DNA from: Bigelowiella natans CCMP2755
Lineage: Eukaryota > Protista > Cercozoa
Assembly: GCA_000320545.1 (NCBI GenBank)
Contig: ADNK01000399.1
Coordinates: forward strand, 1 to 55,397
Length of the DNA stretch: 55,397 bases
Direction: 5' to 3'
Made by a program: the position numbers and the translations under genes
The notes under the pieces: generated by a model
What the model saw: the letters and a program-made list of their open reading frames with translations, nothing else
Told to the model about the DNA's origin: nothing
The model's database searches: none
Shown: positions 4,434 to 49,750 of the stretch, piece after piece
How positions within the stretch are numbered: the first letter of the stretch is position 1
How the letters are laid out: every line of letters starts with the position of its first letter

Positions 4434-5000
4434 TGCTAGCTAGCTAGTGCAATTGATGTTGAAGATGGCTTCATCGTGCAGCACATCGACACATGCATGA
4501 GCGTGTGTGTCATTGTTCATGCTACAACTCTTGTGCTCCAACGTCGCATGCATGGTGTGTGTCTGTGATGGTAGCACATGAGAATGACTGACTGCATTTG
4601 CATGCACACCGTGCGTGCGATGTGCACAGGTGCACAGCGCATGTGACGTAGCGTCTAGAGCGTGGCAGCCCTGCCAGCCTGCCACAGCGAACAAAGTTGA
4701 ATGTGCATGAACGCACAAGCATGCAAGTGAACAATGCACGTACACACTATGAACATCATCGAGACTCCCAACTCGTCAGTGCATCAGCGTGTGTCGAAAC
4801 TACATCTCGATCAACGTGTCGTCGCACTGCTAGTACTCAAAGGTGCGTGCATTACCAAGCCTTTGCATGCCCTACACTCGCTCTCATGACAGCGCTGACA
4901 ATGATATGTTGGAATTTTGGATGCATGGGAGCGACACATCAATAGATACAATTTCGCGCCCCATCTGGCCATCTACATGCTAGCATGCACGGCTTCACTT
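4434..5000. other. Palindrome-rich intergenic island A
   Basis: Dense CATG/TGCA/CTAG. (CTAG)3 at 4436; CATGCTAGCATG at 4976-4987. Lies 3' of the gene ending at 5183. Confidence 0.8.
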
Positions 5001-5182
5001 GTTAAAATTTCGGCAACATCTAATCTTTTACAATGTGAACTTCTTCCATTGCTAGATTGCGCAAATTCGCGGGCTCAAAAGTTTTCTTTCATTAATTTTG
5101 TTATCATTGCTGTTCTCATCATCATCGTCCTTGTCATGTTGAGAGTGCGGCTTTCATTGGGGGAGAAATCGCTCGACGTCCT

Positions 5183-8100
5183 CTACAATAGGTGAACGGG
5201 AAGTAAGGTTCGAATCAGGGGAAAATCTAGTGGTTGAAGGATGATGTGGATGCCTGGTTAAACAACACACACAAACACACGCGCGCGCACACGTGTTTAT
5301 GTAACCATGATGCCGAATTACCTATAAACCGTATGTAATTTGGTGTGCGGGAGTCATTAGCCTGAAGCCTGTAGTATCTGTTCGCCTTGCTCGGCCTGTA
5401 CGTACACGCATACAAATTACATAATCAGCTTCTCGCCATCTCAAATATCTCCCTCTAACGCTCTCTACTCCGTCTTCTCCTTTCTCAACTTACAGAGGTG
5501 GGAACGGTATGATAGGCGGATACTGTTGATGATGCTGTCCCCGGCGCCGGACGGCGTCGGTAGTGGTTGCTTCCCCCCCTGCCGCTGCTGAGGATGGGGG
5601 AGGAATCCTGTTCTCAACCAATTCTCGCACCTATGATCAGATCGCATATATGTAATTTTTGAAGTAGAATTAGCGGTGTTGGTGGTAGTAGTAGTAGTAG
5701 TAGTAGCAGTAGTAGTCGTAGAAGTAGTTGTTGTAGTAAGTAGTAGTAGTAGTAGTAGTAGTAGTAGCTGTAGTGGTGCTATCCGTTTCGGCATAGAAGT
5801 TCTAATGAAATGGGCACAACAACATCATATGTAGCAGCTGGCACCCACCTCCATGCGGTCCGCGTAAGTATACGGTTTCTTGAATATCCGTTCCCATACT
5901 TTCCTGCAGGGGATATATTATCGTACATGGCGTTCGTAACATTGAAAAAGAAAAAGGAAATGAATGCGCAAGGGAGTTGTGCAGTGAGAAAAGGCCGCAT
6001 TTACTGAACTATCATTGGATATCATATCGCTTCAGCCCATCGTTATTCATCGTTGAGGCGTTGTTTTTACTCTGAGAAAGAGCCTGTATCTGGCCTCTGG
6101 ATGAAGTCGAGACTTCCCCATGAATGCTGTCTTTGCCTCCTCCTCTTTTCGCTTCTTTTCCGCTCATGTTGTTCGTGGAGCTGCAGCAACGGCCCCACCT
6201 TTCGTGCTTTCGAGAACTCCGATAGCTTGGTGGATGTGAGAGGAAGAGTGAGGACAGTAAGACAATACTGGTTTGTTCGTTAGTTAGCACATGTGTGCCT
6301 CGCTGTGTAAGTGTGCGCGTCATATGATAGATATTTTTCATGGCTCCCCTCTTTTCTAATACCGGGCCTGTAAGACGCGGGTATAATCCCTGCTCCTTTG
6401 AGAGGAGACGCAAAGGCGATGACTTGGATGACAAAGAGGACGACGACGCTGTTGTAACTTTCCGCTCCTCATCATCGCCGTCGTCAGCGTCGGTATTACG
6501 ATGACCGAAACCTGAGTGCCATCTTGCTTTCCCTCCTACCCCTGATTCGTTAGTAACGACAAGATATAAACAGTGAATAGAGCAGAACTGCAGCAATATG
6601 GCTTGCGATTCCTAGGAATGTGAGGAACACATCGGTGACTCCCTTCTCTCTTTGCGAGGACGGAATCATCAACATTTGCGCGATCATCGAGCTTCATCGT
6701 AAAAAACCTACCTTTATCTGCTGCCAGAGCGGAGTCCCACAGTAGATCGAGTTGCTTTATCCGTGTGTCATCTTCGTCGTCATCTGTTGCTGCTACTGCC
6801 AGCTGCTCTAGCTCATAGTCAAGGTCCTGTGCGGTGGTATCATCTTCGTGTAAGTCACATGGAAGAAGAAGAAGAAGAAGAAGAAGAAGAAGAAGAGGAG
6901 GAGGAGGGAGAAGAGGGGAGGCAGCAAGAATATCCACCCTCTAGAGCTACGCTCGACAGAATTATGAGAAGCTGCGAAGTCATGTATCGAAAGAAATTAA
7001 AGTAGATCATTCTCCCCCCCCTTCCCTCTGCCTCCTCACTTACTCTCGTTCCTTCTGGCGGAGGTATTCCGTTGGTCTGTCGCTTTTTGCCTTCCACCCC
7101 CCCCCCCACTTCTTCTCCTTTCCCAACTACTAGATCCTCGAGAATATGCCGGTAGCGGTAGAGCCAGTAGCCTTTAGGCCTTTCCAGCTGCGCCCCACAC
7201 ACCAGCATGGTTGCCGACTCGCTGCTCATTCCACCGACGACATTGTCTATCCCCTGCGGTGGGCCTCCCATCAGCTGCTTCAACGACGACGACGACGACG
7301 ATGATGATGATGATGATGATGATTCGGAGGCTGCTCCAGTGGCTGCGTTGGTGGCAGAGTCTAGAGCTGCTAAGATCCCCTTTCCGCACCTGTACTTCAT
7401 CAGGATCTGCCTTGGCCAGAGAAGAGAGTCGAGGCGAGGGACACCTGTTGTAGTGTTAACTAGACGCGGAACCACGCCAACGAATGGGGTGCGATAAAAG
7501 CCTGAGGGCGGCAGCGGCGTGATAAGATGCCCATCCACTATGCGCGGCTTTCCTGCTATTTCTTGGAGGTCCTCTAGCACCTTCTCGCGCATCATATCCA
7601 TCCCCACCTGTCATATGTAAAGAGGAGGAAGGAGGAGTAGGAGGAGGAGGAGGGAGGAGTAGGAGGAGAAGGAGGGAAGAATGAGAAGGAGGGTTGGTAA
7701 AGATTTGTTCGAAGCTTCGGAGATGGGAGTGGTGGTTGCGGTCACAGCACCATAAAATTAAAAAAATAACGAATGATCGTAATAATAAAAAAAAGAAGAA
7801 GAAGAAGGAGAAGAAAGGCCCCAAAAAAAAAAATCGCTCTACTGCTAGTGTGTTGTTATACGACCGAAATTGCCTCCATGTCGCTCGGCTCCATGCTCAG
7901 CAGCTCCCGACTGGCTTTCAGGAGCTTAACAATCTCCGCGTCCACGCGCTTTAAGTTGATGTCACTAGTGTGTCGCAAGCGGAATCGAAACTGGTCAGCT
8001 AGATCCTGGAAGATAAGCGCCAGCTGTTTCTTCCTCCTCTCCGCTACCATGTACTGGCCCATCTGCACGCGAGCTGCTAAATCCCTCTGAATGGCAGCGA

Positions 8101-9176: not shown

Positions 9177-9643
9177 CCTCGCTATCTGAATACACATTTG
9201 TGAAAAATTGTCGTGCAGAGAATCTACGGGGGGGGGGACCTAATCCGGACAGCCAGCGCTCCCATGGAGTATCCCCCCGGCTCGAAACTTACTCCCTCTC
9301 CCTCCCGGTTCTGGTCCAAGTCAGCGGGCGTGAGAGATTCTGTGTCGTCTTGTCGCAGGGTGGAGGCGGTTGCGCGGGTACAGGTAATATGGCCATTTAC
9401 GGCCGTTTACCACAGCAAAAGGCATGTCTTTGTATAGAAAGGAATGAGATTCTGCGACAACGGCTTGCCATTTCATGAGATAAAAATTGCATGTCAAATA
9501 TAGGATATTTTCGGTACGAGACATGGCTTCTTTTGATGTCGCTCTGCCATGATTCTTCGTGCTCTCCGACGTCCCGCACAGGTCCTTGTGTAAGCTAACT
9601 TCCAGCGTCTCTGCGGCCTCGACGGGATGGGATCTGCTGGGTG

Positions 9644-10490
9644 ATGGCTCGATGGATTTCCCTGGGGCTCATTCTTGTGGCAGTGCTTGTCATAACACAG
9701 GATGGGGGCCCTGCGCGGAGCCACGAGGTTGAAGATAACTGGCAAACTAACTAACATGGCTCACAGCATGATTGTCACTGAACAAGCTTTGCCATCTCTT
9801 GTAGGCGATGCCCTCACTCAACTTGAGTCCAGATTCCCCACATGGGGGTTCATTCGGCCTTAGGGAACACAGCACCACAACCACCCTGGCGCCTAAGCAG
9901 AAGTCAATGACGTTGCCAGAGGTGCAGCTCCCAGATCTCTCTCGCTTATCCCTCTCAGCCCCTGGCATGCGGGGAAAGCGCATAAGACTTATGCCTGCCA
10001 AATCGGACAAATCGCAGGATGCCACAGCTCCAAGTGAGCTTAGAATGCTCAATGTTAAGGAGGTCTACGGTAATGGAATTATATACGAAATGTGATTGTG
10101 CATCCAGACGCGAATATAGATCCCCGAGAGCTCCTGGTAGGATTAGACCATGCTCAAAATTTTTAATGGGGACTATCACTATAATTTTCAGAAGAGCTAC
10201 GGGTACTGGAAAATAATGACCCACTCCCTCGGAAAGCTGCTGCGTTTGCCGCGTTTGGGAAGAAATTGGAGACGAAATACTATGTATTGCATAATTAATT
10301 TTATTGGACTATCTATCTACTTCCTACACGCCCACAACATATAGATGATTATTTTATATGAATTTTGCAGTCTCATCCCGTACCTCAGAAGCCCGCTCTC
10401 ACCAAGGTCAGAGTCAGTAAAACAGCAACATGAATGAAACCTATGGTTTTGCTATTCTGACTTGAAGTCAAGCAACTGACGTGCATGTGC

Positions 10491-10525
<35 letters not shown>

Positions 10526-11925
10526 AGCGGGTGTATGTATGTCGAGTTTCGTACAGAGTCTTTTGCATTTCAAACTGAGGAGATACCCATTTATATATTA
10601 GGTTGGCCTTTTCACCGTCGGCCGTGGTTTGAAGGCGCGCAAGAGGCTTCCTAGCATGCGGAATTTGACGACAGTTTTGAAATTGGCAACCGATTCTCCC
10701 ATTCGTCAAACTAGGGCTACAGAGGCCGCAGGTTGTATTATCCAACACAACGTTTGTGGATGTTGCTTGTCAGCATCATTGCGTAATGCAACACAGCGCG
10801 CTCGCCCTCTCCTCGCGCTCACGAATCTAAAATGCTCAATGGCGTCGTTTTGATTTATTTTGCAGAAGCTGTGCTACGCGCCCACAAAAGGCGAAATTTC
10901 ACCGAGGACCAAGCGGTGAGAGTGAGATTGAGGAAGAGGATGAGGGGGGGGGGGGGGGTTATCAAAAAAACGGTTCTGTTCCGAGCATGCGACTTGAATG
11001 AATTACTTCTCTTCCAAACATAGGTTTTCGTACAAATCGGGCTGAAAATTATGAAGGAAGGTTAATGCTCATCATAGTAGTGCACACATGACAGCCCTAG
11101 GACGATGGGCTTGGAACAATAATTCTCCTATTTTATCGAATGCTAATTTACAAGGACAATCGTCATCGTAATGAATGATGATGGATTTTAATCACGCTGG
11201 GTGGGTTGTCGTTGTTGTTATTCCAGTGCGAGTCGGGTTTGCGAAACGCGTATCTCCGCTCCGAATACGGCTCCCCCACTCGATCTGGAAAGCTCGTGAT
11301 CCGAAAATGTAGTGGCTTTGGGGGGGGGAGGGATCGGATTATGGGGATTATTTACCAGTTGGCCGGTCATGTGACCTCCTCGCATTCATATCGTAGGTGT
11401 GTTATCACCCGGCAGGAACACAGGCACTTTCTGCACCATGCCTTCGAAAAAACGGTCCTCGTCGCAGTTGTGGCTAGTTTGGCTGCGCATGCACGCCCGA
11501 ATCGTGAAATTACGATTGGTGTTCTTGCCGCGCGTTTCTACTTTACTTCAAACCATGAGCCTCGTTGATGTGTGTTTGTGTGTGTGTTTGCATCCGAAGG
11601 TAAGTGTTGTCGTTGACGTTCCTGGGTATGTGGGGAAACTAGGTATGTCAATACGAACACCAATCAACTACAAACACCAATCAAAGTTAGGAGAAGAAAG
11701 GGGAAACTGAGGGCAAGGCGAGGGTGGGGGATGATAGGGTATCGCAGCATTTCAATTCTAAAGACCATTCCTCTCCTCAGGAATCTCCTTCGCGAACCGT
11801 ACCATTGTGAGTGTGAAGAAAGGCCGGTAATACGTTGACATCGCTCGATCATTCGTCGTCGGTGGAATATTGATACATAGAGGGAGAAAGATATTTTATT
11901 CTAGAATAAACAGCAACGCACAAAC

Positions 11926-11996
<71 letters not shown>

Positions 11997-12842
11997 AGCA
12001 TGATATAAATAAAGACACACATAATCATCATCATCGTCATCAATACTTGTGAAAGGGTTGGGGATCGAATTGGGCTGCGGGAAGGTGATGTCATCTCCCA
12101 CATTGACAACAAGAGGACAAAGGTGCGAGGAAAGGAATAGGACTAGCTATCGAAACAACAGCATCAACAACAACACAGCAACAATATCACACGTTTAGCA
12201 AGCAATACAGTCAATAGCAGAGAAGCAAATGCCGAATTGAATGGCGGGAGGAGGTTTTTGTTAATTACGCTTGCGAGGAACGAATGCATATGCAGCGATG
12301 ACCAACTGTCAAAAAACGAATATTCGACTACAGCCTCTTCCTCATACTTCGTCTCCTAACTTCCCTTCACCCCCCCCCCCCCCTTCCATTCTCGATGCGT
12401 CATATAAAGACCCAAGACGAGTGCGTGGCGAAACTTGCACGGGTCAAGGGCGAAAACCGCCCCTACAAGATCGTAGTCAGGAGAGGTCGCTGTGATGTTG
12501 TTCGGCGTGTGTGGTGGGGCATGTATGTGCGTGCATGCGTTTCTGATTATTGTTGCTGTGCGTGTGCATCTTTGCTAGTGCTTCTAGCTACATCGTTATC
12601 ATCATCATCATCATCATCATCATCGTCATCGTTAACTTTCCCCATCCTCATCTCATCCTTTTTGAATTACTCTTTTATGTTCGATGGTAATGCTGCCGTG
12701 GTTGGTTGGTGCTGCTGGCAGTTGGGCGGTATGCTGACTCTCCGTACGTGAGGCGTGTGCTGAGCATAGAGAGACTGCGGATTGCTTATAAAACGTAAGT
12801 GCCCGTCAAATCATATATGATCAAATATGTATTTAATTCATG

Positions 12843-12938
<96 letters not shown>

Positions 12939-14414
12939 TGTCTAGATGAAGGAAAGTGATAACGGATTTGGGGGGGGGGGGGTGATGGTAATGTAGGAGG
13001 GTGATATATTAAATGCTAATGTTGTATTATCCTTATACCTTTGTTCCTTCTCCTCCCCCCCCTCTATCTTTATAATGGTTAGATTTCATTTGCGAAGAGA
13101 GTTGTTAGGCCAGTATGATATGTTTCTTACCGACAAGAAGGTGTACCGTTCATCATCCTGACAGAAAGAAACCAAGAGGGGGGGTAGAAGAAGGGAGAGA
13201 GAGAGAGGGAGAGAGAGAGAGAAAGAGAGAGAGGGAGAGAGGGTGAAGTCTGCATGTGCCAGGAGTGTAAAGTGCATACACTGCACAAAGAGGCCTACCA
13301 GCACGAGGGGGGGGGGAGAAGAGCCCACATTTTGCTTTTTCCGTGCATGTGGCCTACTACTGCCATCCTACGGTCAGCGTGAAGATGTATAAACAATTTT
13401 ATGGTTTCCAGCTCCCTTCCATGAAATCTGAGCGTTGTCTTTCGTGTCTCTCTGTTTTTTCACTGCTAATACGCATCTCGAAAAGATGACGCATCGAGTG
13501 GCTCAGGTCGCCAGTTAACATAATGATTCATCGCGCGTGTGTGTGTGTGTTGTGTTTTGATTGGAAAAATAAAGTTGTATTTCGCGTGTATTGGGACGGC
13601 AAATAAGTAGTAGCAGTGTAGTGCTGACTTACGACGACGATTTCATGGCCTCCTCCTCCTCCTTCTCCTCCTCCTTTGAATATCAGTTGATGGGAGCCAA
13701 ATTCATCCGGAAAAACCGGCTACCAATACCGATAAGGGTAGACGATGGATATGTGATGATGACGATAATGTTGATAGGAATAGTCCCTTTCCACCAGATG
13801 CATTGATGTATAATGTGCTTTGTTCCTCTGCCCCCTCCCCCCCTCCCTGCGATTTCTCCAGGTGTCGAAGAACCGAACGTCGGTTGACCAAGAGATTGCG
13901 GAAGTGCTGAAGTAAGATGAGGATGATTGTTGTATATATCTAGAGAGCAATGTTACACGTAAAAACTTCGATTGTCACTTGCAGAGTAAATATTTCATTA
14001 TGGAAATGGCGATTTGCTGCATTGCTTCTTCGCCCTCCTTGGCTGATATAGTATGTAATATGACCCCTAAATCTGCACAATTCTTCATGACTCTCAGTAC
14101 CACATTCGTGCAAGAAACAAACGGCGATTGTCTCACCGTCAGGTCCCTTTTGCAAATACATACATCTTAAAATATATTTCATAGAAATCATAGGATGTGT
14201 GCATTTTTGTGTTTGTGTGCGCGATTTCCTGCCATGAGTTGCCGCATTGTGTTGGGCAGAGTGGGCGACACAAATATGAGCGGAAAAGAACTTGCAGAAA
14301 ACATACGGTAGAAGAGCATTTCCTTCTCATGATATATCTACAAAACACATATAGAAACAACTACCCGCATAGATTTACACAGTCATATGTTATAACGTTA
14401 GCAAGCCAGCGCAA

Positions 14415-14476
<62 letters not shown>

Positions 14477-15334
14477 TTATATAACTTATTGGATTGTATG
14501 TACGTGCTGTTGTGTGTTGATATGTTATTCTGCAACAACCGATGTGTGTTTTTAGATGTGCAGTAGCGGCTGCTGTTCTAAAGCTCGTCCACGGAGGGGT
14601 AATAATAGCTTTGCTGCGCGCTCCTGAAGACGCGTCTAATCATTGCTTCGTGTCCCTAACACAAAACTTACTGCTTGATTTCTTTTGAACCGACCTGCTT
14701 TCCATGATGGGCTTTTCGCAGTGGAACGGCGTAATATCAATGAATGTGAAGGCGCATCGTGGCCCGGCCGTCCCTCTATTTCTGCAGGTAACCTACCGCC
14801 TCGGCGTTGGCGCTATCGAAATTGCATTTTAGCTCGGAAAACGTGGGAGGAAGGGGGGGGGGGGGGTTAGGGTTGGAAGTTAAGCGAGGGTTTGCAACAT
14901 GGCCAACATCTATCTCTATACAGGGCGAAGAAACGTTTTTAAGTCAGTATCAGGACGCGCAGCGAGAAAGAAAGGCCGGTGATTCGAAGGCAACAGCTGT
15001 GGAGAACACCGAGGACTCTAAGAACTCACAAGGAGGCCTGCTAGAGCTGTTGAAGGGGAAGTTGTCTCTATGGCCAAAGCCGTCATCACGAGAGAAAAAT
15101 GGCGACGATATTCCCGAGAATGCTCACAAAGAGGAACAGCAGCTACAAGGTGGTAGCCTTATGATAAACGAGCAGATTCAGATCCCGGATTCTAGCAAAC
15201 TGCAAAAACAGCAGCACGGGAAGGAGCATGCTTTAACTCAGGGTCTTGCTGAATTCCGTGCAGATAACGGTGCGACTCATGACGAGACGAAATTCGCCCT
15301 GGTAGATCAAGTTGCAGCGACAGCAGTGGCGTAG
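9644..15334 (+). CDS. RSL1D1: Ribosomal L1 domain-containing protein (RSL1D1/Cic1/Utp30-like) with an inserted PDZ domain and an N-terminal signal peptide; about 20 small exons
   Basis: Spliced exons give L1-domain motifs VFVQIGLKIM, PLRIRLPHSIW...MCVIT, VRRVLSIERLRIAYKTFHLRRELLGQYDMFLTDKK, LMGAKFIRKNRLPIPI, GDCLTVRVGDTNMSGKELAENI, WNGVISMNVKAHRGPAVPLF. Junctions are GT-AG and phase-compatible. Last exon is 14924-15334. Confidence 0.8.
11600..12485 (+). other. PDZ domain encoded by four exons (11600-11642, 11781-11826, 12056-12122, 12410-12485)
   Basis: Spliced peptide VVDVPGYVGKLGISFANRTIVSVKKGRVGDRIGLREGDVISHIDNKRTKTQDECVAKLARVKGENRPYKIVVRR. It has the KLGISF carboxylate-binding loop, GLxxGDxIxxI and the terminal helix-strand of PDZ domains. 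Confidence 0.8.
12847..12933. repeat. Compound microsatellite (TA)n(TG)n(AG)n, intronic
   Basis: Directly visible in an intron of the L1/PDZ gene. Confidence 0.95.
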
Positions 15335-15499
15335 CACATATCCCAGTAATGAGCCAAACAGTGCTCTTAGATTGATACGCACTCAGCACAAAAATAGTAT
15401 CGCCACCTCCCATAAGCAGAAAGAACATGTTTGGCAGTGCATGCAAGATCGTCATGTTCATTCTTACGAGGTTCGTCCGTCATCTTGCAACGACTGACT

Positions 15500-16250
15500 G
15501 GTTTAACACTGCACGCGTTTCGATGTCACGTTGTTCATGCATGGTTTGGGAGCAGATCTTGATCATTCAGACACCGTGTACATGATGCACAAATTGAACA
15601 TATGCACACATCAATTTTGTTGCACATGCCATCATTGCTGCTTGTTGTTTTGCTAATCATCGGATGAGTGCAATGCCTGTGGCTTCTCTGCCACTGTGAC
15701 ACGCGCTTGGGCCAACACATGCGTGCCAAAACTTCATTGGCTACGAGTCTAGAAATGGCTAGTTTTCAGAAGCAGGTTGGTGCATGTTTCGCATGCTCAC
15801 ATACTAGCATGCTGGCATGGCAATCAGTGATGATTTGGCTGCAACGATGCTAGCTACTAGAGCTAGCTAGCTAGCGATGGGCAAATCATCATTGTGGCTG
15901 CGATGTCGATTGCAATTGAACATCAAGAAGGGACAGAGCACCAACCAGTTGAAAATGCATGCATCACCATGTCTCATCATATCTGCGTCAAGTGCGCCCC
16001 TCTAGCCCTGTCTAGCTAGCTAGCTGTCTGGCTGCCCAGTGTGACACTGGCTGTGGCCTGACTTGTCCACAAATCCCTCTCAACTTGCATGGACTTGAGA
16101 TCGCATCTGAAACTCTAGTTTAAAAAAACAAGGAAAAACGGGGATCGAGGGCATGCCTGACACGTCAGACATGCAGGAGCGGGGCCAGGCCAGCAGGACT
16201 AGAGTGTGGGGCTACGATGGCGACGGGCGCGATCAACACTAGCTAGCTAG
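15500..16250. other. Palindrome-rich intergenic island B
   Basis: (CTAG)n at ~15865, ~16012 and ~16239. One-mismatch 12-mers at 15800 and 15808. Lies 3' of the gene ending at 15334. Confidence 0.8.
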
Positions 16251-16728
16251 AACGGCAATTGTCTCCACTCCCCACGAAGACGGAGAAGGCGACACAACGA
16301 AAGAGAAGAATCAATGCAATGTGGCCCCTACGGTTTCTCAATGTGGATCCTGTCTGGGTTTCTGTTGCATGCCTGCTTCCTCCGAAGGGGCAGAGCTCTG
16401 CCCATCTCTTCTCCTCCCTCGCAACCTCTCTCCTGGAATCTTGGAAATCGCGCGTGGCCGGAAAAAATCGCAACACAGCGGTCTTCCAGGTAATCAGCTC
16501 TTTCGCTAGGAAATGTAGGGCATTTTTGCAAGAACTATTGAGAATTACGGGCGTTCTCCTGTTCAAGAATCTCTTCTTTCTGTATTCGGAAATTCCGTTG
16601 TCGCAATTACGTGATTGGGATGCGTTTACCAAGGAATTATGGGCATTTGAAAGAAAGAGTCGCGAAAACCCCTCCCCTCCTGCGTCCCTCTCGCGCCTTA
16701 TCTCCGCCCACTCTTTTTTGGCCCCTCC

Positions 16729-17780: not shown

Positions 17781-17838
<58 letters not shown>

Positions 17839-30246: not shown

Positions 30247-30359
30247 ACTAGAGTAGGCATTTAGTTGGCACACTTGGGACAAGCTGAGCGAAGTAACATC
30301 CATTCGGTTTCGCTAATATTCTTTGTGTCATCAGGGCTTGAGATGGATTAGTCAAATAT

Positions 30360-31140
30360 TAGTCACGCTCTAGCAAATGTATTATTGAAGTAAACCCGCT
30401 GAGCGTATGTCTAGACTTTATCATAAATTGTATGTCACATGCTAGCATGTTTCTACAAGTAGTGGCAACGCACACTGCTGAATGATGCAACATGCGTATG
30501 CGGTCACTTTGTGCCTCTATGTACATGCTAGATATGGCTTAGTTCGTAGCCTTACATTATTACATGATCTAAATTATGTACTACATGCTAGCATGTCTGA
30601 CATGTCACGCATAGCTAGATAGGCCAGGTGATTCTAGATTTCACGGCCGTACACACGGTGGACATAAGCACATTGTCGCAGTCGTCCTGCTGGGATCGTA
30701 TCGATAATTCGCAAATGCATATCGCTAAGTATGCTAGTATGTAGTCAGTACTAGAGTACATAGCTAGATAGCTACACTAAATCAGCATGAGGTGCATAGG
30801 CTTCATCTAGTGCAGATCTAGACGAGCACACACCTTTAGATCTAGAGATCCATGTGCTACATGCTAGCATGCCACTAAGAACTGTGCGCGTCGTGCATTG
30901 CGACAGCAGTGTTCATTTGTTAGCATTACATGTACACAGCCGCCCTAGCTAGCTAGCGCTATATATTTGCAGACGTGTGTAGATGCACATGGCCGAAGCA
31001 AAACATGCAACTGATTAAGATATGTACATCATCGCATGGCGCGAGGCTGCACTGCTCACATGGCCTGCGAAATGCATCCGCGTAAATACACACGTCTCCT
31101 CTAAGCTTTATTATTAATTTAGCTAGAGAACAGACAAGGT
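30360..31140. other. Palindrome-rich intergenic island C
   Basis: CATGCTAGCATG at 30438, 30584 and 30860; (CTAG)3 at ~30946. Lies between the convergent HECT and DUF1764 genes. Confidence 0.85.
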
Positions 31141-31731: not shown

Positions 31732-31785
<54 letters not shown>

Positions 31786-35717: not shown

Positions 35718-35761
<44 letters not shown>

Positions 35762-38700
35762 AACACAAACACAAACACGTACACGCAAAAACCAACTGCT
35801 GCGTGGCTACTTTCCACCCCCACCCATCCTTCAGGCCATGGCCGACAAGGACTCTGAAAGATACCAGAACGAGCTGGGGAGTCTAAAGCAAGCCTATGTT
35901 GAGCTAGGACTTCCTTTCCCGCCATCTCCAAGCCCACGACTCGGAGCATCGGGTCGAAAATCTAAGACCCCGCGTATACGGAGATCACCGGCAGTACACG
36001 GGGCAAATGTCCCTGTTCCCACCCCAATGTCTCTATCGGATGGGGAAACTCTAGAAACACCAAACCGGGGGGGCGGGGAAGGAAGAAGACGAGGTAGGGC
36101 AAGGCGAGCAGATGTTGCATCCATGGCAATACACGGGCGTTCCTTAAAAGACCACAACCTCAAACAGCAGCAGCGAGAGAAAAGTGTCGTCAGCAGCAGC
36201 AGCAGCAGCGGTGGCCGCGGTCCTCGTATTCCACGATCTCACCAGTCACACGTTTTCCCCTCTCCAAGGGCAGCAACAAGTCGCCATCATCGGAACGACG
36301 AGAAGCAGCTGCTAAGAACTGTTCCCGGCTCCTCCACCACTAACGATAATACCCTCTCCTCCTCCTCCTCCTCGACCTCATTCCAGGTGGATTTAAAGTC
36401 AGAGAAACAACAAGGCTCCAAGAGGACTAGCAGCAGTACAGAAAGGGCTTCAGCCGTCGTCGCTGCTGCGAGTAATACAATTGCTGGGTCACGCAGTCTA
36501 CGGCCGAGAAATGCAGCTAAGAAAAGAGACAAAGATAGCTACTACTCTGATGACGAGGAGTACGCTGGAGGATTTGAACAGCGCAGTAGCAGTAGCAGTA
36601 AGAGATCCAAAAGGGCGAAGCGCGTAGCTGCTGCAAACGGCGCCACAGCTTCTCGCTCATCATCATCCCGTAGTGGTGGGAGGCAGCAAATAGAGGGCGC
36701 GAGCAGAAATGCCCGTGGAACTGGAGGAGCATCGAAGTCATCAGTGCCGGGCGAGTCATCGTCAAGTGGCGGTAGTGGTGGTGGAAGCCGTAAAAGGGCC
36801 TCCTCATCTTCGTCCTCGAAAGGAGGAGGAACGCCCGTGAGAAATCGGCGCGGCAGAAACGAGGCTCTGCTTCCTTGCCCCAAATGCAATGCGAGTGATC
36901 GCAGCATACGCAATGGGTGGAGCCGAATGCAGGCTTCGCGAAGTAGAGAGCGGAAGAATCGCAATAGCATCTACGAGGGTGCCGCTGGAAAAGATGGGCG
37001 CGTGCAACGGTTCCGTTGTCGCCGCTGCAATTTAGATTACCGTGCTGTAGCCCCTCCTGGAGCTCCTCCACCTCCCGAAGGCTCACCCATGACCTTCTCT
37101 ATAACGCTGTCGCAGCTGATGGCTTCTGGGAAGAAGGTGGGGACTACGGCAGGGAAGAAGGGCTCTAGCTCTGGGGGGAAAGGGGGTGGCAGTGGTAAAC
37201 CGGGTAGGGATACTAAAAAGGGAGGAGGAGGAGGGGGAGGAGGCTCGAAGCCCCAAAGCAAGACTCCCAAAACCCCGAAAACTCCGAAAACCCCGAAAAC
37301 CCCGAAAACGACATCTAAGCAAAAGAATCATGGTAGAGCGACGATGATAATAACGCCAAAGTCCGCTCCTGCACGTACCAGCAGGAGTCGGAAAAGGCCT
37401 CGAAGTCTCCCTGATGAGAAGGCGCCGACGACAACGAGCAGTAGAGCTAGGAGAAGATCGGCTGCCAAGGACAACAGCGGTAAAGGATGGAAATGCGCTG
37501 TCTGCACACTCGTAAACGCAAAAGAGAAGGTAATTGACCAGACAACACACATCCGCAAAATATATCACTCAGCCTCTTTGATTCTTTAATGATTTTGTGT
37601 CCCTTCTTTGCATTGCATCGTTGTTGCATCACTTTGTGACATTGCCACCGACCACACATATACCCTGTCTATAGTCTATGTCGAGCTCTTGTGTGGGGGT
37701 TGGTTGTTATAGCAGTATCCAAAAAAAGAAGAAAAAGAAAACAATGCGATTACACCACGGTGTACCGCCGTACGGTTGTATTCTCGATGCTCTTTCGCAC
37801 TGATCACCTTATTATTCTTATTGTGTTCCATTTGCGCAGCTTATTTGCCCTGCGTGCGGTTGGAAGAAGCCACGGAACCAGAAGTCACCCACCTTGCTCT
37901 CCCCCGTCGTTTCAACGCAGAAGAAACAATGGAAACAGGCCAAGCAGAAAGGAGTAGAGAGTGATGACGACGAAGACGAAGGCGATGACACGGCAGCTGA
38001 AGTAGAAGCAGCTACAGCAGAGCAAACGTCTTCTTCATCGTCTAGACCGCGTAAAAGCAGCAGCAGGAGGAGGCTGACGACCAAAACCGAAAACCACCAC
38101 CACCATCAGCAGCAGCAAGAAGGAAGGATGGAAGAGGATGCGCAACTTGCGTCTGGTGCGAATGCGGACATGAAACAAGTAGCGACGACAAGGACGGCGG
38201 CGACGACGACGGCGGCAAAAAAGAGGAAAGCGGCAGCGAACGGAGAGCCGCCTCAAAGGAGGAGGAGGAGCTCTAGGGCCACAGCAGCCGCGACAACCGC
38301 CAGGAAAAATAACACTGCTGCTGCCAATAGCGATAACACCACCTCGAATACCAGCGGCAGCAACATCAGCAGCAGTAGTGGCGAGAGGAAAGCGACGACG
38401 ACACGGTTACGGCAGCAGCCTCAACAAACAGCTTCCGAGGCAGCAGCAACCTCCACCATTACTACTAGAAAAACACGATCTCTTAGTTCTGGATCATTGG
38501 CTACGGCCGCGGCGGCCGCAGCAACTGGAGGTAGGCGTTCGCGTGCGCGCGGAAAGGATCCTGGGTACAGTGAGGGGCAAAAGGTGCAGGTGAAATGGTG
38601 CTCAACATGGTATAATGTTCGGCTTGACGGGCCCATTCTCAGCCGGAAAGGTAGTCACGGAGCGATGAGCGTACACGTGCTATCGGTGTAGTTGTGGGTG

Positions 38701-41053: not shown

Positions 41054-41254
41054 AGTGTTTAAATCAGTCAGCAAGCTAGAATTTAGAGTCATAAGCACAT
41101 AAAGCGCGGTAAACTCTCGGTTGAAATCGAGAATGGACGACGAGCATGATTTTGCGGTAAAGCCGCAGTGTTCGCTAGGACACAGAAGTAGCAGGATGAA
41201 TGACATCCTTAAAATCATCGTGTACAAGCATTATCGGTATAATTTATTGTTACA

Positions 41255-42260
41255 CATGTCTAGATGCATCCTACCAGGCTAGGCCCTAGATATGCTGCAC
41301 TACCTGTGGGTGGTTGTTTCCATCCACAACGTCTAGACGTGCAGGCCACAGAAGATGCAGAGAGCATGATGCTGCTGCAAGTACCTGTAAATTAAAAAAA
41401 AGAACGAAGTATGTAGTTCCGACTGTCACATGTACGAACCAGTGCGTCTACTAGCGCAGGATGATTCATTCTTCACCGACGCAGCACAGCTAGACAGCGC
41501 ACTCTAGCACGCATCACTGTACGACACGGCACACTACTAGATAGACTAGCACATAGCTTGTAGAGCGCATGCAACGACAATGCAGTCCGCAATGAGTTTG
41601 CTAGCTAGTTAGTATAGCTAGATAGCGTAGTCTAGACTAGATAGCTAGATAGAATTAGATCGAGCAAGCGGTGCGATGATCCACCTCCACATCGATCGCC
41701 AGTCTAGCTAGCTAGCTAGCTAGCATCGCAGTGCAACTTGCTAGCTTGTGATCGCGGTTATTGGAGAAACTCAACTGCATGCCTAGCTAGCTAGCTTGCT
41801 AGCTCTAGAGCTGTCTAGCTGCATGCGCTAGCATGTGCATGCTTATTAAATATGGAGACATACATGCCGTTATATTTGCAAATCATTTATGTCGATCTCG
41901 ATTTCGCGCATGCAAGCTACTGGTTAAAGCAGTGCTAGAGTTGTGCATGCTAGCTAGCGGCATTTATAGTCTAGTAGATGCAGTCGCAAGTGCGAGCACA
42001 CGCGCACGCACATCACATTGCTAGATTGGGTGTCATTGTGCCCAGCTAGCCAGATTATAAGATGCGATGCTACAGATAGATCTTGAGACATCACTGTTAG
42101 ATCATGCTAGCATGGAGTTCATAATACTTGCTAGCTTGTCTATTTTGCGCGTGCCGGAGCCTAGCTGTTAGACATGCAACGATATTTGCTTGGGAGGCAG
42201 CATATCTGTGTCATTAGGCCTAGCTAGCTAGCCTAGACAGCAAAATGCCATGGCTTGTTA
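41255..42260. other. Palindrome-rich intergenic island D
   Basis: (CTAG)5 at ~41704 and further CTAG runs at ~41783 and ~42220; CATGCTAGCATG at 42103. Lies between the convergent HMG and LZIC genes. Confidence 0.85.
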
Positions 42261-42372
42261 ACGCACGCACGTTACCGCTTGTGATTTCAGACATTTGTTT
42301 TGTGTATTGCATCTGAACTGGAGTAGTTCACCCAGCGATGTGCCGTGGATCAACAACATGACTTTGCTTTTC

Positions 42373-43317
<945 letters not shown>

Positions 43318-43988
43318 GGTGCTAGAGAAAGAAGTAAGGAATCTGCTTGTGGCTCCCCCTCCTCCCTTTTCGTTCCCTGTCGTAATATTCATTGTCGCAC
43401 CATAAAGTTCTAGGACGTTACACCAACATGTTTTCAATGGGGAATTTCCAACTTCAATTCGTCATTTCCGGTTTTCCCCGGACAATTCGCCGAAATGTTA
43501 ATTGTGGTTCGCAGACCTGAAGCGCCTCGAAAGGAAAACACAGCCTTGCAGATCCACGTTATTCTCCGTGCGTGGAGTCTACGATGTACGCGGGGTTTCT
43601 TTTTGGTCCAAAACGCTTGCTTTTTTCCGGCTTTTTTTTTCGCTCCTTCTCTTGGTACGGCCATGTATGGCGCAGAAAATTCGGTGTGCGGGGCTACGTG
43701 GCGCATGTGGCTGTCGAAGCCCCTCATTTAATGCAAAATCGCGTGTTTTTGTCATCTGCGACTGAAAAACACCGCTGCCGGCAGAAAGGAGTTGCAGCCA
43801 CCCATCTCCACCCCCCTCTCTTCATCCAGTGACTGTACCGATTTTTCGTTGGATTCATCTTCTGGGAACCTGGTGAATGCTTATCACTTTGAATGCCGAA
43901 AATTGGCTCCCCTTGAATTCTACAGGAGTTGCCAAGGGGCACAAGTGATTACCGTCACTGAGCCTTATTATAACGTATGCAGGTCAAC

Positions 43989-46900
43989 ATGGCAGCTAAG
44001 GAGGATTACAAATGGGTTGAGGAATTCGTCGATAAGGAGGTATAGAACACTAATTTCATGGCTTGAATACTGTACAGTAATCCCAAATGTATCAATAAAG
44101 GCTGGACGAGTGAAACCTGGTAGAGTAAAGGATTATCTCAGTGAGCTTTTCAAGCGTCGAATCGCTGTCTTAGATGGTGCAATGGGGACAATGATCCAGG
44201 GTTACAAGCTCGGCGAGGAAGACTTCAAGGGAGATAAGTCAGTGAACCAAAGACAAACCTGCCTACTTTTGTCTGTTGTTTTTCAGCGTGATACTAATTC
44301 TTCATTCTTCTTAGGTTCAAGGAGCACAAGTCTCCTCTGAAGGGGAACAACGATCTTCTGTGCCTGACGCGCCCCGAGATTGTTTCGGAGATTCATGAGA
44401 AATATTTCCGCGCCGGATCTGATATTTGTGAAACGAACACGTTCAACGGAACTTCAATTGCGCAGGCTGATTACAAACTGGAACACATCGTCTACGAGCT
44501 CAATAAAGCGGCTGTTGCGGTCGCTCGTGCAGCGGCTGTCAAGGTCACAAAGGAGGAACCTCACAAGCCTCGTTTAGTTGCCGGTGCGATTGGTCCAACC
44601 AATAAAACCCTCTCTATGTCCCCTGACGTCGAAGACCCCTCATTTCGAGCTGTGACTTGGCAAGAAGTTGTGACAGCTTACAAAGAGCAGATCAAGGGGC
44701 TTTATGATGGGGGCGTTGACATTCTTATGGTGGAGACCGTTTTTGATACTCTCAATTGCAAAGCTGCACTCTGGGCTATCGATGAGTACTTTGAGGATGA
44801 TCTCGAAGGCAAAGTTGAACGGCCGCCAATCATCATATCGGGTAAGAATGCAGGGGAGGGGTCTTATCATCTGATTTCTCAAGATCTAGCAGATTCCTTG
44901 TGAAAGGGGAGAAAGAATTTTAATGTGAATTAATGTGTCCCCTTGAACTACAGTTGAACTACAGTAAACACTTCTCGTAGAATTATCGCGCAATTTGAAG
45001 CATTTTTCCTCCTCATCATCATCATCCTTCTGGCCAATGATGGATATTTTGTTAGGCACCATCACTGATAAATCTGGGCGCACTTTCTCTGGGCAAACCA
45101 TCGAGGCATTCTATACGTCCGTGCAGCACTGCAAGCCATTCTGCGTGGGTCTCAACTGTGCTCTCGGAGCAAGAGATATGAGGCCACACCTTGCCGCACT
45201 GTCCAACATCGCCGAGTGCTACGTGCATGCGTACCCCAATGCAGGTCTGCCAAATGCAATGGGCGGATACGATGAGGACGACAAGGCTATGGTCGAATCT
45301 TGTAGGGACTTCTTCGATTCCGGTTTCATGAACATGATCGGTGGCTGCTGCGGAACATCTCCAGCTCATATCAAGGCACTCGCAGAGTGCCTCGCATCCA
45401 AGTAACTAGTAACCGGAAAAGAGAAACAGACCGCTAGAGAGAGAGAGAGAGAGAGAGAGAAGAGAGAGTCATATATATGCATAGAGTGTGGGGTCAGAGG
45501 GAGGGGGGAAGGTGATAAAGGATCTACTACATAGATGTACTCAACGAACTGAGCGACCGTGTTAGGCAGAGCAGCAGCAACACGTTTTGAGGCTCGTTAC
45601 GTTGATTAGGTACCCTCCACGCAAGCCACAACCACTCTGCACAAACATGAGATTGAGCGGACTGGAAATGTATGAGAAGACCGAGAACATCCCTTTCGTC
45701 AACCTTGGGGAGCGCTGCAACATCGCCGGATCGCGTAGATTCAAGAGGTTGATTACGAACAAGAAATACGAGGATGCGCTCCAGGTCGCCCTCGACCAAG
45801 TCGAGAACGGCGCCCAGGTGCTGGACATCAACATGGACGACGGACTTCTGGACGGTGTGGCGGCCATGACGAAGTTTCTGAAGCTCATCGTCCCCGACCC
45901 CGCCATCGCTAAGGTGCCCATCATGGTTGATTCGTCCAAGTTTCACATCTGCGAAGCCGGTCTGCAGGTCGTGCAAGGCAAGTGCATCTTCAATTCCATA
46001 TCATTGAAGGCTGGGGAAGACCTCTTCATCGAGCAGGCACGGAAGCTCAAGCGTTACGGATGTGCTGTTGTGGTGATGGCGTTTGACGAGGAGGGCCAAG
46101 CCGCCACCCTTCAGGATAAGATCAGGATTTGTAAGCGCGCATACGACATTCTGACCGGCGAGAAGGTTAAGTTTCCTCCTTGGGACATCATCTTCGACCC
46201 GAACGTCTTGACGATTGCTACCGGAATTGCTGAGCACAACTCCTACGCCATGGACTTCATCAAAGCTACCAAATGGATTCGTGAGAACCTGCCGCACGCC
46301 CATGTTTCTGGTGGTCTCTCCAATCTTTCCTTCTCGTTCAGGGGACTCAACAACCTGCGTGAATCTATGCATGCCGTCTTCCTCTACCACGCCATCCGAG
46401 ATGGTGCGACCTTCCCCCCCCCCCCTTCCCCTTTTCTCAGATACTCCTATTTGTTGAGAATGTATCAGAGTGATTTTTGGATTTTAAGCTGGAAATAGAG
46501 CACTTTTCGTCGTCCTCCTCACAAATTGTCACCATTATTGCCCCCAATAGGTATGGACATGGGTATCGTTAATGCTGGCGCACTTCCTTTGTACACCGAC
46601 GTTCCACAGGACTTGCTGAAGTTGCTCGAGGATGCCATTTTGAACAAACACGAGAAAGCTACGGACAATCTGCTGGAATACGCCGAGAAGGCGAGGGAGA
46701 GCAAAACTACAGGCGGCACGAAGAAAAAGGAGGCCGCGGAATGGCGCAAACTCAGCGTTGAGGACCGCTTGACTCACGCCCTGATCAAGGGGATCGTGAA
46801 GCACATCGATGAAGACACGGAGGAGGCACGTAAGAAGTTTGACAAGCCACTGGAGGTCATTGAGGGCCCTCTGATGAAGGGCATGTCCACTGTGGGCGAC

Positions 46901-47080
46901 TTGTTCGGTGCCGGGAAGATGTTCCTCCCCCAGGTTATCAAATCCGCACGTGTGATGAAGAAGGCAGTCGCATACCTCATCCCATTCATGGAGGAGGAGA
47001 AGAAGGCATCGGGGAACATGAACTCCCATGCTGGCGTCGTTCTCATCGCCACGGTGAAAGGAGACGTTCACGACATTGGT

Positions 47081-47113
<33 letters not shown>

Positions 47114-47300
47114 AACTTCAAGGTCGTGGACATCGGGGTCATGTGCCCTCTCGATAAGATCCTGAACGAAGCGAAGAAATGCAACGCGGACATCATCGGT
47201 CTCTCGGGCCTGATCACTCCTTCCCTTGATGAGATGGTCGACGTTGCGAAGGAAATGGACAAGCGCGGCTTCAAGGTAAACAGCTCAGAGGAACTGCGGA

Positions 47301-47348
<48 letters not shown>

Positions 47349-48717
47349 AGATTGGGCAGGATGTGCGGGTGTGGGAGGGGGGGGTGAAAAGAAAACGAAG
47401 ATAATGATAATGATAATGATGATGATGATGATGATGATGATGATGTCTCTGGGTTTAACAATTTAACGGTGTCTGTTCGTTTCGCAGGTCCCTCTGCTCA
47501 TTGGTGGCGCTACGACGTCGAGGATGCACACGGCTGTTAAGCTTGCACCGAAATACAAAAACCCCGTGGTCCACGTCCTCGACGCCTCCCGCGCCGTCGT
47601 GGTGTGCTCCAACCTGCTGGACAAGAATCAGAAGGAAGACTACTGCGAGGACATCGCCGAGCTCTACCAGGACATGCGCGAGGAGTACTACGAAGGCCTT
47701 TCGGACGTCAAGTACGAAACGATCGAGAATGCTCGCAAGAGGCCCTACAAGATCAACTGGGCCTCCGAGCCAGCTCCTGTGAAGCCTAAGTGCCTCGGCA
47801 CCAAGGTGTACAAGGAGTACGACCTCCGGGAGCTTGTCGACTACATCGACTGGAACCCCTTCTTCCAGACGTGGCAGCTGCGCGGCAAGTACCCAAACCG
47901 CAACTACCCAAAGATCTTCAAGGATGCGAACGTCGGCAAAGAGGCTAAGCGCGTGCACGGCGACGCCCTCAAGATGATCGATGACATCATCAAAAACAAG
48001 ACGCTCGAATGCCGCATGATCGTCGGGCTCTACCCAGCAAACTCAGACGGCGACGATATCATCGTGTACACTGACGAAGAGCGCAAAGAAGAGCAATGCC
48101 GCTACTTCACGCTCCGGCAGCAGGCTCTGAAAGAGGACAGGGACGACCCCTACATGGCCATGAGCGACTTCGTAGCTCCAAAGGGATCAGGCATCAAGGA
48201 CTACGTGGCTATGTTTGCGGTTTCTGCAGGATTCGGAGTGGAAGAGGCCGTCAAGAAGTACCAGAACGACCACGACGACTACAAGTCCATCATGCTCAAG
48301 GCAGTTGCTGATAGGTTCGCAGAGGCTGCAGCTGAACGCGTCCACGAACTCATCCGCAAGGATCTATGGGGCTACGCGAAGGAGGAAAAGATGAGCGTTG
48401 AAGACATGCTGCGCGTCAAATATCAGGGGATCCGCCCCGCTCCCGGGTACCCCTCACAGCCCGACCACACCGAAAAGCTCACAATGTGGAAGCACATGAA
48501 CGTGGAGAAGGAAACGGGCATTCAGCTTTCAGAATCCCTGGCCATGATGCCGGCCGCCTCCGTTTCCGCGATCTGCTTCGCAAACCCCAAATCGAAGTAC
48601 TTCGCCGTGGGTAAGGTGTGCAAGGATCAGATCGAAGACTATTCTGCCCGCAAGGGTATGAAGAACGAGGTTGTGGAGAAATGGCTTGCTGCAGACCTTG
48701 CTTACGACCGTGCTTGA
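43989..48717 (+). CDS. metH: Cobalamin-dependent methionine synthase (MetH/MTR), 7 exons
   Basis: Exons 43989-44039, 44101-44237, 44315-44841, 45056-45401, 45610-46403, 46551-47275, 47488-48717. Motifs [23 protein letters not shown] (Zn/Hcy domain), GERCNIAGS (pterin domain), [23 protein letters not shown] (B12 His ligand), [17 protein letters not shown] (AdoMet activation domain). Confidence 0.97.
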
Positions 48718-48899
48718 GAAACAACGCCCTCGTGTGGAAAAGACGTGCATTATCTTTAATGAACACTGTCTTTTTCGAATACTGGATTATCGATGAGAGC
48801 GTGTGCCTTGTATTATTGAAATAGTGAAACCGAACGCGGCTACGTAAGAAAATATGCATGTATGTCGTTTCAAGAACAAAAAATTGAAAAAAAACCTCC

Positions 48900-49750
48900 T
48901 ATCAAGATGATTTGATTGTAACATTATGTACGATCAGTACAGTCACACATATCAGATATGTAGCACAAAGAACTATGTATATCGTAGTCGGAATCGATTG
49001 TCGCAGTGGCGCATGCTAGCATGCCTCAATAGCTTGTTGCCTACAATGACAATTAGCTAGCTAGCTAGCAGCAGCCACCATTTATGGCCGATGCCTAGAA
49101 TATCATGAATGACTAAACACAGCCTAGACAGTAGTATGGTGGACATGCTAGCATGCCATACCAGCTAGCTCGAAGACAATTCTCTAACTGTAATTCACAT
49201 ATCTAGATATGCCGATAGTCTGTCTACGTACAGATCCGCCAGAGATGTGCGCGCTGCGTTGGCGCCGTAGTCATCCACGCTCTACTACATGCTAGCATGC
49301 TAGTAGCTGATCGAAGGCAGCCAGCAAGATGCTATGTATCTAGATAGCAGACACATCTACATGTGACCAAGGAAACAAACAGATACAATTTAAGCGCTGT
49401 AGCCGCTGCATTGCACAGCTACATTAGGATGACCATTGAAACAATTTAAACATTTCATTACATCCGTCTCACATCTAGATGTAGCATCTATACGGCATGC
49501 TAGCATGTAAGCGCTGTAGCTGCAGCATTCTAGCATTGCACAGCTACATTAGGATGACGGTTGCTAGCTTGGAAAAATGTAATTGTTTCATTACATCCGT
49601 CTCATATAGCGCGTGCGTGTAGCTTGGCGTGTCGATATTAGATATGACAGCATGCAGCAGGCAATAGGTCTTGAGTATTTTCGCGCCATCAAGTGGTGCG
49701 GACCATGCTGGCATGACTAGATGAGCCATCGTACCGCATCGTACTTCGTT
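48900..49750. other. Palindrome-rich intergenic island E
   Basis: CATGCTAGCATG at 49012, 49144, 49288 and 49496; variant at 49704; (TAGC)4 at ~49054. Lies between the convergent metH and PLP-lyase genes. Confidence 0.85.
49391..49606 (+). repeat. Diverged direct duplication (~85-100 bp units) inside island E
   Basis: taagcgctgtagc...cattgcacagctacattaggatgac...tttcattacatccgtctca occurs starting at 49391 and again at 49508. Confidence 0.85.

Follow-up and report, generated by a model that had tools for sequence, protein, structure and literature searches.

Direct 4-bp duplications around CTAG in Bigelowiella natans gene-3' spacers: a recurrent 12-bp palindrome as a probable transposon excision scar

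Background

Cut-and-paste DNA transposons of the Tc1/mariner type are known to leave a footprint at the sites which they vacate, consisting of a fixed TA duplication together with a terminal remnant of 2-5 nt, the stagger at excision being 2-3 nt. Palindromic sites containing CATGC are known as well, namely the RY/Sph element of plants, which belongs to B3 factors, and the apicomplexan TGCATGCA, which belongs to AP2 factors. Both kinds of system are of concern for a recurrent perfect palindrome of 12 bp, CATGCTAGCATG, in the DNA of the chlorarachniophyte Bigelowiella natans CCMP2755, which had been noticed in a sequence-only reading and taken there either as a binding site for a dimeric protein or as the end-product of a directional mutational process. 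Herein we analyse it in a stretch of 55,397 nucleotides (contig ADNK01000399.1 of assembly GCA_000320545.1, positions 1 to 55,397 of the forward strand), which as a whole is called the window. Our results reveal that the palindrome is one form of a wider class of sites, in which CTAG stands between two identical 4-bp words, and we propose that these sites are probably scars of a departed transposon.

In the parts of the cited papers on which we draw, several other transposon families with short target-site duplications are described. Sola generates 4-bp target-site duplications, and Ginger has TG..CA termini with duplications of 4-6 bp (PMC10741241); in Kolobok the 4-bp duplication is specific to TTAA (PMC9587614), and the excision of piggyBac is mostly footprint-free (PMC1939997). 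For B. natans itself eight DDE transposase orthologues are given in the Amorphochlora genome paper, which in the portion available to us mentions DNA transposons and holds nothing like the scars described here (PMC12730881). A literature search on motifs, intergenic DNA and transposons of Bigelowiella and chlorarachniophytes, and on excision footprints, yielded no description of the 12-mer, of the scars or of the islands in which they lie; the 12-mer occurs in 13 papers, 12 of which, judged by their titles, apparently use it in cloning primers.

Direct flanks of CTAG in the islands

The palindrome CATGCTAGCATG occurs nine times exactly in the window, at 4976..4987, 30438..30449, 30584..30595, 30860..30871, 42103..42114, 49012..49023, 49144..49155, 49288..49299 and 49496..49507, precisely where it had been reported; the copy at 49288 has a further CTAG immediately after it, and the one at 49496 adjoins the second copy of a repeat that is treated below. 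The three one-mismatch copies were confirmed likewise, at 15800 (CATACTAGCATG) and at 15808 and 49704 (both CATGCTGGCATG). As had also been claimed, every copy is confined to islands; these are five in number and CTAG/CATG-rich, total 4565 bp and hold 100 CTAG against 83 in the other 50.8 kb.

When the variants of the palindrome are considered, it is direct rather than inverted symmetry that they preserve. Four of the seven two-mismatch variants hold a direct repeat (TATG-CTAG-TATG, CTTG-CTAG-CTTG twice, and CATT-CTAG-CATT), and none of the seven shows inverted identity alone. We therefore write W for a 4-bp word and W-CTAG-W for a CTAG with identical direct flanks, and every CTAG in the window was tested for such flanks. 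They were found at 39 of the 100 island CTAGs versus 0 of the 83 outside, while in 20,000 permutations of left and right flanks among the island CTAGs the count averaged 6.99 and never exceeded 18. For sites outside CTAG arrays the figure is 28 of 67 versus a permutation mean of 2.81. Among sites with a non-palindromic word 16 are direct-only, where the permutations averaged 0.92 and reached 7 at most, and just 2 sites are inverted-only. One of these two inverted-only contexts, which the direct-duplication rule does not cover, belongs to a palindrome of nearly 16 bp, TCACATCTAGATGTGA, which is found twice about 120 bp apart, at 49351-49364 (where it reads ACATCTACATGTGA) and at 49469-49484.

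The pattern is specific both in its core and in its dimensions. The same test applied to the cores CATG, TGCA, GATC, GTAC, TCGA and ACGT gave 0-2 matches each, and the 7 direct matches of AGCT are frames of the CTAG arrays. A general scan for words of length n repeated directly around a spacer X of length m singled out no period other than 8, together with the arrays of period 4 that belong to it. CTAG is the top spacer between 4-bp direct repeats with 39 cases and the sole enriched 4-mer there, the next ones being shifted frames at the same sites; moreover, fewer sites fit when the flanks are parsed as 5 or 6 bp.

Among the 39 scars, as we shall call these sites, 16 words are represented: CTAG 11 times, CATG 9 times, ATAG 4 times, ATTG and CTTG twice each, and eleven words once. 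CATG thus makes up 9 of the 28 non-array words, although it accounts for less than 2% of the island 4-mers. Base counts at the four positions of the non-array words are C14/A13/T1/G0, A11/T10/C4/G3, T16/A8/C2/G2 and G20/T6/A2/C0, that is, a symmetric M-W-W-K, as is expected for a two-fold symmetric enzyme acting on its target. This preference also accounts for the island enrichment of GCTAGC and TCTAGA, as against 0 occurrences there of ACTAGT and CCTAGG. In this setting CATGCTAGCATG is simply the case W=CATG, the commonest non-array member of the W-CTAG-W class, and it is a perfect palindrome because CATG and CTAG are each self-complementary.

The remaining members are scattered over the islands, and altogether the intact scars cover 312 of the 4565 island bases. 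ATAG-CTAG-ATAG is found at 30611..30622, 30760..30771, 41614..41625 and 41641..41652, ATTG-CTAG-ATTG at 5048..5059 and 42017..42028, and CTTG-CTAG-CTTG at 41737..41748 and 42127..42138. Words that are used once give CCCT-CTAG-CCCT at 15998..16009 (with a non-palindromic W, as in the ATTG scar at 5048), TATG-CTAG-TATG at 30730..30741, AGTA-CTAG-AGTA at 30747..30758, AGAT-CTAG-AGAT at 30838..30849, ACGT-CTAG-ACGT at 41329..41340, ACAG-CTAG-ACAG at 41486..41497, AGCT-CTAG-AGCT at 41801..41812, CCAG-CTAG-CCAG at 42042..42053 and ATAT-CTAG-ATAT at 49199..49210.

The one-mismatch copies of the palindrome fit scars with a mutated core or flank. At 15800..15819 the sequence CATA-CTAG-CATG-CTGG-CATG can be read as two overlapping decayed scars with the middle CATG in common and one substitution each, and at 49704..49724 a CATG-CTGG-CATG with decayed core overlaps a younger ATGA-CTAG-ATGA. 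Seven island sites with identical flanks have a one-base change in the core; five of them read CCAG or CTGG (4670, 4961, 15808, 16186 and 49704), with CA or TG in place of the central TA.

Insertions of 8 bp in a duplicated repeat

The size of the event can be read in the fifth island, where a repeat of about 90 bp is present in two copies, copy A at 49359-49476 and copy B at 49508-49609 (TAAGCGCTGTAGC...CATTACATCCGTCTCA). The two copies align with exactly two gaps, each of 8 columns, and at both gaps an empty site faces a filled one, in a comparison that is between paralogous repeat copies and neither between alleles nor between orthologues. The first pair is clean: copy A has a single CATT (49409-49412) and copy B has CATT-CTAG-CATT (49526-49537). 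In the second pair copy A has a single ATTG (49435-49438) and copy B has GTTG-CTAG-CTTG (49560-49571), the flanks of which are identical at three of four bases. Each event is thus the gain of CTAG plus a second copy of the four adjoining bases, 8 bp in all.

These sites also bear on replication slippage of 4- or 8-bp units, such as (GCTA)n or (WCTAG)n, which could be thought of since CTAG arrays are present and both period 4 and period 8 appear in the direct-repeat scan. Around the empty paralogous sites, however, CTAG is absent, which excludes slippage on a pre-existing unit there, and a second CTAG after the scar is seen at just 1 of the 28 non-array scars (that at 49288). Moreover, slippage should let run lengths fall off smoothly, whereas in the window CTAG occurs 150 times as a single unit, 2 times as a double, 8 times as a triple, never as a quadruple and once as a run of five; both doubles adjoin a near-CTAG unit, either before or after. 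Slippage is accordingly a very improbable explanation. Insertions of 8 bp into an older CTAG, on the other hand, lead to (CTAG)3 and then to (CTAG)5, so that odd runs are just what is expected.

The triple at 4436..4447 can for instance be read as a scar in an older CTAG, and further (CTAG)3 arrays lie at 15863..15874, 16239..16250, 30945..30956, 41783..41794, 42220..42231 and 49057..49068; the (CTAG)5 array at 41704..41723 equals one CTAG plus two 8-bp steps. An eighth triple is nested, as CTGT-(CTAG)3-CTGT at 16008..16027. When scars were removed in silico, a procedure that we call peeling, this site exposed a second-round CTGT-CTAG-CTGT and then CTGT. Peeling counted 39 events in total, two of them nested, while control cores gave 0-7.

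The 90-bp repeat itself appears to be dispersed in this genome in a very high number of copies. In the bins that contain it the summed depth of DNA contigs is 7044 and 1688, as against about 23 elsewhere, and both DNA and RNA contigs have loose ends at 49359. Neither Rfam nor a tRNA search matched it, and clear terminal inverted repeats or duplications were not seen.

Excision scars as the proposed origin

When arbitrary sequence is directly duplicated at a fixed length around a constant insert, this is the mark of a target-site duplication, as it arises when a staggered cut is filled in. We therefore consider it probable that the W-CTAG-W sites are scars from repeated insertion and excision by a cut-and-paste DNA transposon, with CATGCTAGCATG as their commonest form. 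In this scheme W would be the 4-bp target-site duplication made at integration, and CTAG would be the remnant of the element ends after departure. Two routes may be imagined: the transposase could cut one strand four bases inside the CTAG-bearing ends, whereupon self-complementary 4-nt overhangs would be ligated, with a stagger that resembles but exceeds that of Tc1/mariner elements, or the element could be deleted between its two terminal CTAGs; either would give a uniform scar. The element would prefer the palindromic target M-W-W-K with CATG and CTAG as optima, and by inserting into an old CTAG it would make the (CTAG)3 and (CTAG)5 arrays grow. Scars would persist only in places that can bear a large insertion for a time without harm, namely outside transcription units with short introns and outside compact divergent promoters.

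The restriction to islands cannot be due to the supply of targets, because 203 CATG and 83 CTAG outside the islands carry no scar. It seems rather to reflect tolerance of the large intermediate insertion in gene-3' spacers, while targeting by chromatin is an alternative cause.

Several points weigh against such an origin. The 55-kb window yielded no full element that has terminal inverted repeats and is flanked by a 4-bp duplication, the best candidates there being motif artefacts, and no transposase family was found among 50 open reading frames scanned with Pfam (9 + 41, a subset of those in the window). Excision footprints of known elements are usually heterogeneous, and the scars here are uniform. 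Their density is also high, with 39 intact ones in 4565 bp, as compared to about 14 one-base-decayed scars above chance (11 with flanks identical at three of four bases versus 4.8 expected, and 7 with a one-mismatch core). This would put the rate of scar formation, by a rough estimate, at the same order as that of point substitution, which is high for an ordinary transposon. For the absence of scars from introns there is the selection argument alone; the three copies of W in the second empty/filled pair disagree at their first base, so that this pair is imperfect; and after peeling, 51 of the 100 island CTAGs are still not accounted for as intact scars. The leftover CTAGs show a modest excess both of flanks identical at three of four bases (the 11 versus 4.8 given above) and of the context K-CTAG-M, with 35 of 61 as compared to 31 of 83 outside the islands. 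Nor do scars account for the island background, which is rich in CATG, TGCA and GCATGC.

Some of these points would suit a host process that makes the 8-bp insertions by itself, for example through a nuclease, which might be a transposase or integrase that has been domesticated, making cuts in spacer DNA at M-W-W-K sites with a 4-nt stagger, and through a repair that adds CTAG. The uniformity of the scars, their very high density in gene-3' spacers only, the lack of an element within 55 kb and the high inferred rate all speak for it. However, no repair pathway is known to us by which overhangs, once filled in, would receive a constant tetranucleotide between them. Moreover, simple fill-in should leave tandem W-W duplications of 4 bp, and these are only about twice as dense in the islands (46 in 4565 bp versus 253 in 50832 bp), for which reason they were also rejected as a second type of scar. 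On balance a host process is a serious rival but rather unlikely, and excision of a transposon is preferred in what follows.

The 12-mer against background models

If the class is set aside and the palindrome is considered as a word, its excess over every background model is large. Low-complexity words excluded, it is the top-ranking 12-mer of the window by frequency, and nine of the ten occurrences of TGCTAGCA lie within it. Matches with at most one mismatch number 12, as compared to a mean of 0.17 in dinucleotide-preserving shuffles of the window, none of 100 of which reached 12. The expectation of 0.003 under uniform composition that had been quoted was recomputed as 0.0033. It had further been asked whether local 4-mer composition fully accounts for the frequency, and this it does not do: island-trained Markov models of orders 0-5 predict 0.0003-0.99 copies when the motif copies are retained and at most 0.075 when they are masked, versus 9 seen, the values for orders 3 and 4 being 0.13 and 0.38 with copies kept and 0.05 and 0.07 with copies masked.

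This disposes to a large extent of the idea that a longer dispersed repeat, or the composition of the islands alone, produced the copies. Island word usage is indeed extreme, GCTAGC for example occurring 41 times in 4565 bp versus 2 times in the remaining 50.8 kb, and GCATGC 25 times in the islands versus 12 outside, with CCGG and homopurine words depleted; when the island limits are drawn slightly wider, to 5245 bp, the islands take in 45 of 91 perfect palindromes of at least 10 bp and 33 of 48 of at least 12 bp, mono- and dinucleotide repeats being dropped. Even so, no model up to order 5 approaches the observed number, and the flanks of the copies are unrelated. Aligned over 70 bases, they are no more alike than random island pieces, the best score being 30 where the 95th and 99th percentiles of the null are 24 and 76, and the best matches are shared short words. 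A longer repeat around the palindrome, be it a dispersed family, a miniature transposon or a satellite, was therefore rejected, and of all the explanations considered this one has the least to recommend it.

The same excess would be welcome to another explanation, in which CATGCTAGCATG is a selected site of a dimeric protein, such as a factor that serves at gene 3' ends in termination, as a roadblock or as a boundary, the site being maybe exapted from scars. The perfect palindromy would agree with this, as would the location of the copies 72 to about 300 bp past those messenger RNA ends that can be placed, and the share of CATG among the words. However, the class is defined by direct repeats of arbitrary words, which no binding model predicts, and the CATG excess fits a target preference equally well, since CTAG, ATAG, ATTG and CTTG obey M-W-W-K too. 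Binding sites are also usually less sharp than nine exact copies against three with one mismatch. We thus regard a selected site as improbable, and as the origin of the copies a dimeric-protein site, one of the two interpretations of the sequence-only reading, is unsupported given the dominance of direct over inverted flanks both in the class and in the variants. Scars may nevertheless be used secondarily by a protein. The other interpretation, a directional mutational end-product, was right in so far as the origin is mutational; the process, however, is an 8-bp insertion made of a 4-bp duplication and CTAG, and neither a directional substitution nor a compositional effect.

Two further features had been put forward, and neither flank extension nor spacing was upheld. 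CTA does precede four copies (at 4973, 30581, 30857 and 49285), but the enrichment of CTA or of R..Y flanks is not significant, the R..Y flank being present at 8 of the 9 copies versus 36 of the 61 free island CATG sites (P=0.06). Likewise the distances of 146, 132 and 144 bp between neighbouring copies are correct, and 3 of the 6 neighbour spacings of the palindrome fall in 130-150 bp (post-hoc P about 0.004), but the supposed nucleosome-scale preference is gone when all scars are counted: the 37 merged scar sites had neighbour spacings of 13-540 bp with no peak. No RNA genes were found in the islands, with 0 Rfam families at the gathering score and 0 transfer RNAs.

A metagenome scan for two 12-mers 115-145 bp apart returned 7 loci, all of them tandem or local repeats with conserved flanks. 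They were rejected as instances of the same phenomenon, as W-CTAG-W occurs in them only with CATG, which the search pattern forces. In one metagenome contig (L003, 3397 bases) the two copies of the 12-mer at 313-475 have largely different flanks, each with AAA before and TA after; this contig has a GC content of 59%, is dense in CATG and has no other W-CTAG-W sites.

Islands and gene setting

The window is nuclear eukaryotic DNA with GT..AG introns of about 60-310 bp. The best named relative of the last methionine synthase exon, at 78%, is the chlorarachniophyte Amorphochlora amoebiformis, and part of this DNA stretch is contained in marine metatranscriptomes. All five islands adjoin at least one gene 3' end. 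Island 1 (4430..5060; 7 CTAG, 3 W-CTAG-W) occupies the spacer just 3' of a minus-strand gene at about 5.06-8.95 kb. Island 2 (15200..16400; 17 CTAG, 4 W-CTAG-W and 1 nested) overlaps the 3' end of a plus-strand gene at 9565-15519, for which RNA contigs end at 15487-15519, and continues downstream of it, upstream of a HECT E3 ligase gene. Island 3 (30300..31050; 17 CTAG, 9 W-CTAG-W) is the spacer 3' of that ligase gene, the stop codon of which is at 30246.

The last two islands lie between convergent 3' ends. Island 4 (41150..42300; 42 CTAG, 15 W-CTAG-W) separates a plus-strand gene that reaches to about 41.05 kb from a minus-strand gene at 42.4-43.2 kb, the introns of which appear as CT..AC. 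Island 5 (48950..49780; 17 CTAG, 8 W-CTAG-W) separates the plus-strand gene for cobalamin-dependent methionine synthase (MetH, 43414-48717) from a minus-strand gene for a Cys/Met-metabolism PLP enzyme (about 49.8-51 kb, with PF01053 at 50168-50978), so that two genes of sulphur amino-acid metabolism stand here tail to tail. RNA contigs of MetH, from three runs in two studies, end at 48883-48907 and a DNA contig continues to 49389, which is a weak hint; there is little or no RNA-contig cover over island 4 and over island 5 beyond the MetH 3' end, where a gap in contig cover carries no evidential weight. No copy of the motif had been noticed in divergent promoters, and the two recognisable divergent promoter gaps, at about 8.95-9.56 kb and 43.2-43.4 kb, hold no scars at all.

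As for the other genes, the ligase gene on the plus strand (18544-30246) encodes a HUWE1-like HECT ubiquitin ligase with a match to the HECT domain, and its roughly 3900 codons are distributed on three giant exons with 1297, 1088 and 1488 codons open. The gene upstream of it (9565-15519, about 6 kb) has at least 15 introns supported by RNA, so that intron density is very uneven between neighbours. In the C/T-rich stretch upstream of the ligase gene a perfect palindrome of 16 bp, GGGCAGAGCTCTGCCC, lies at 16388-16403 and is not of the CTAG type. A fragment of a GTPase gene is located on the minus strand at about 1.7-2.1 kb.

In introns and transcribed regions long microsatellites of the types (GA)n, (CA)n and (TA)n are numerous and frequently lie directly side by side, for example at 360-435, 600-680, 11920-11995, 12840-12940, 17780-17835, 31730-31790 and 35700-35790, whereas the islands hold none. 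The two non-coding compartments are therefore opposite in their repeat content.

Implications

Taken together, these results lead us to the tentative idea that a very active cut-and-paste element of chlorarachniophytes, or a host nuclease derived from one, might write uniform 8-bp scars in gene-3' spacers at about the rate of point substitution, and that it might thereby create CTAG microsatellites growing in steps of two units, palindromic "motifs" arising de novo, and a compositionally distinct class of intergenic DNA. Should the rate of scarring be as high as the ratio of intact to decayed scars suggests, the process would have a major part in shaping the intergenic DNA of this lineage. A tetranucleotide microsatellite that arose from nested insertion with odd-numbered growth, instead of from slippage, would have come about by an unusual route, and by one that can be tested.

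There is also a caution for motif discovery in little-studied genomes, as a palindrome that is statistically overwhelming may represent a scar of mutation instead of a regulatory word. The rule itself, which combines duplication of 4 bp with CTAG as the remnant and M-W-W-K as the target, is an exact signature that can be searched for in any chlorarachniophyte assembly. It could thus reveal the responsible element, its activity between strains, and whether it prefers gene-3' spacers as safe harbours.

Comparison with known systems

The sites share with RY/Sph and AP2 sites that CATGCTAGCATG can be read as CATGC-TA-GCATG, with two inverted CATGC half-sites, and that GCATGC is enriched in the islands. 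Unlike those sites, however, the variants here lose the half-sites and the inverted symmetry, and they are located in gene 3' spacers and not in promoters. Among the transposons, the likeness to Sola is in the 4-bp length of the duplication alone, and no transposase, termini or element of Sola was seen in the window. The range of duplications in Ginger includes 4 bp, but with TG..CA termini the expected remnant is TGCA, and just 1 of 68 island TGCA sites has the form W-TGCA-W, so that Ginger is an unlikely source. With piggyBac and Kolobok the sites have in common a 4-bp stagger and a palindromic tetranucleotide as target; these families were rejected, as TTAA is 0 of the 39 words, and in contrast to the precise excision of piggyBac the scars keep both duplicates and four extra bases.

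The closest known system is the excision footprint of Tc1/mariner-type elements. The scars differ from it in that the duplication is a variable 4-bp M-W-W-K, the remnant is uniformly CTAG, the density is higher and the element itself is unseen. What they share with it is the general logic: the target is duplicated around a brief constant remnant, complementary overhangs would follow from staggered cutting within the ends of the element, and the old site keeps a small insertion.

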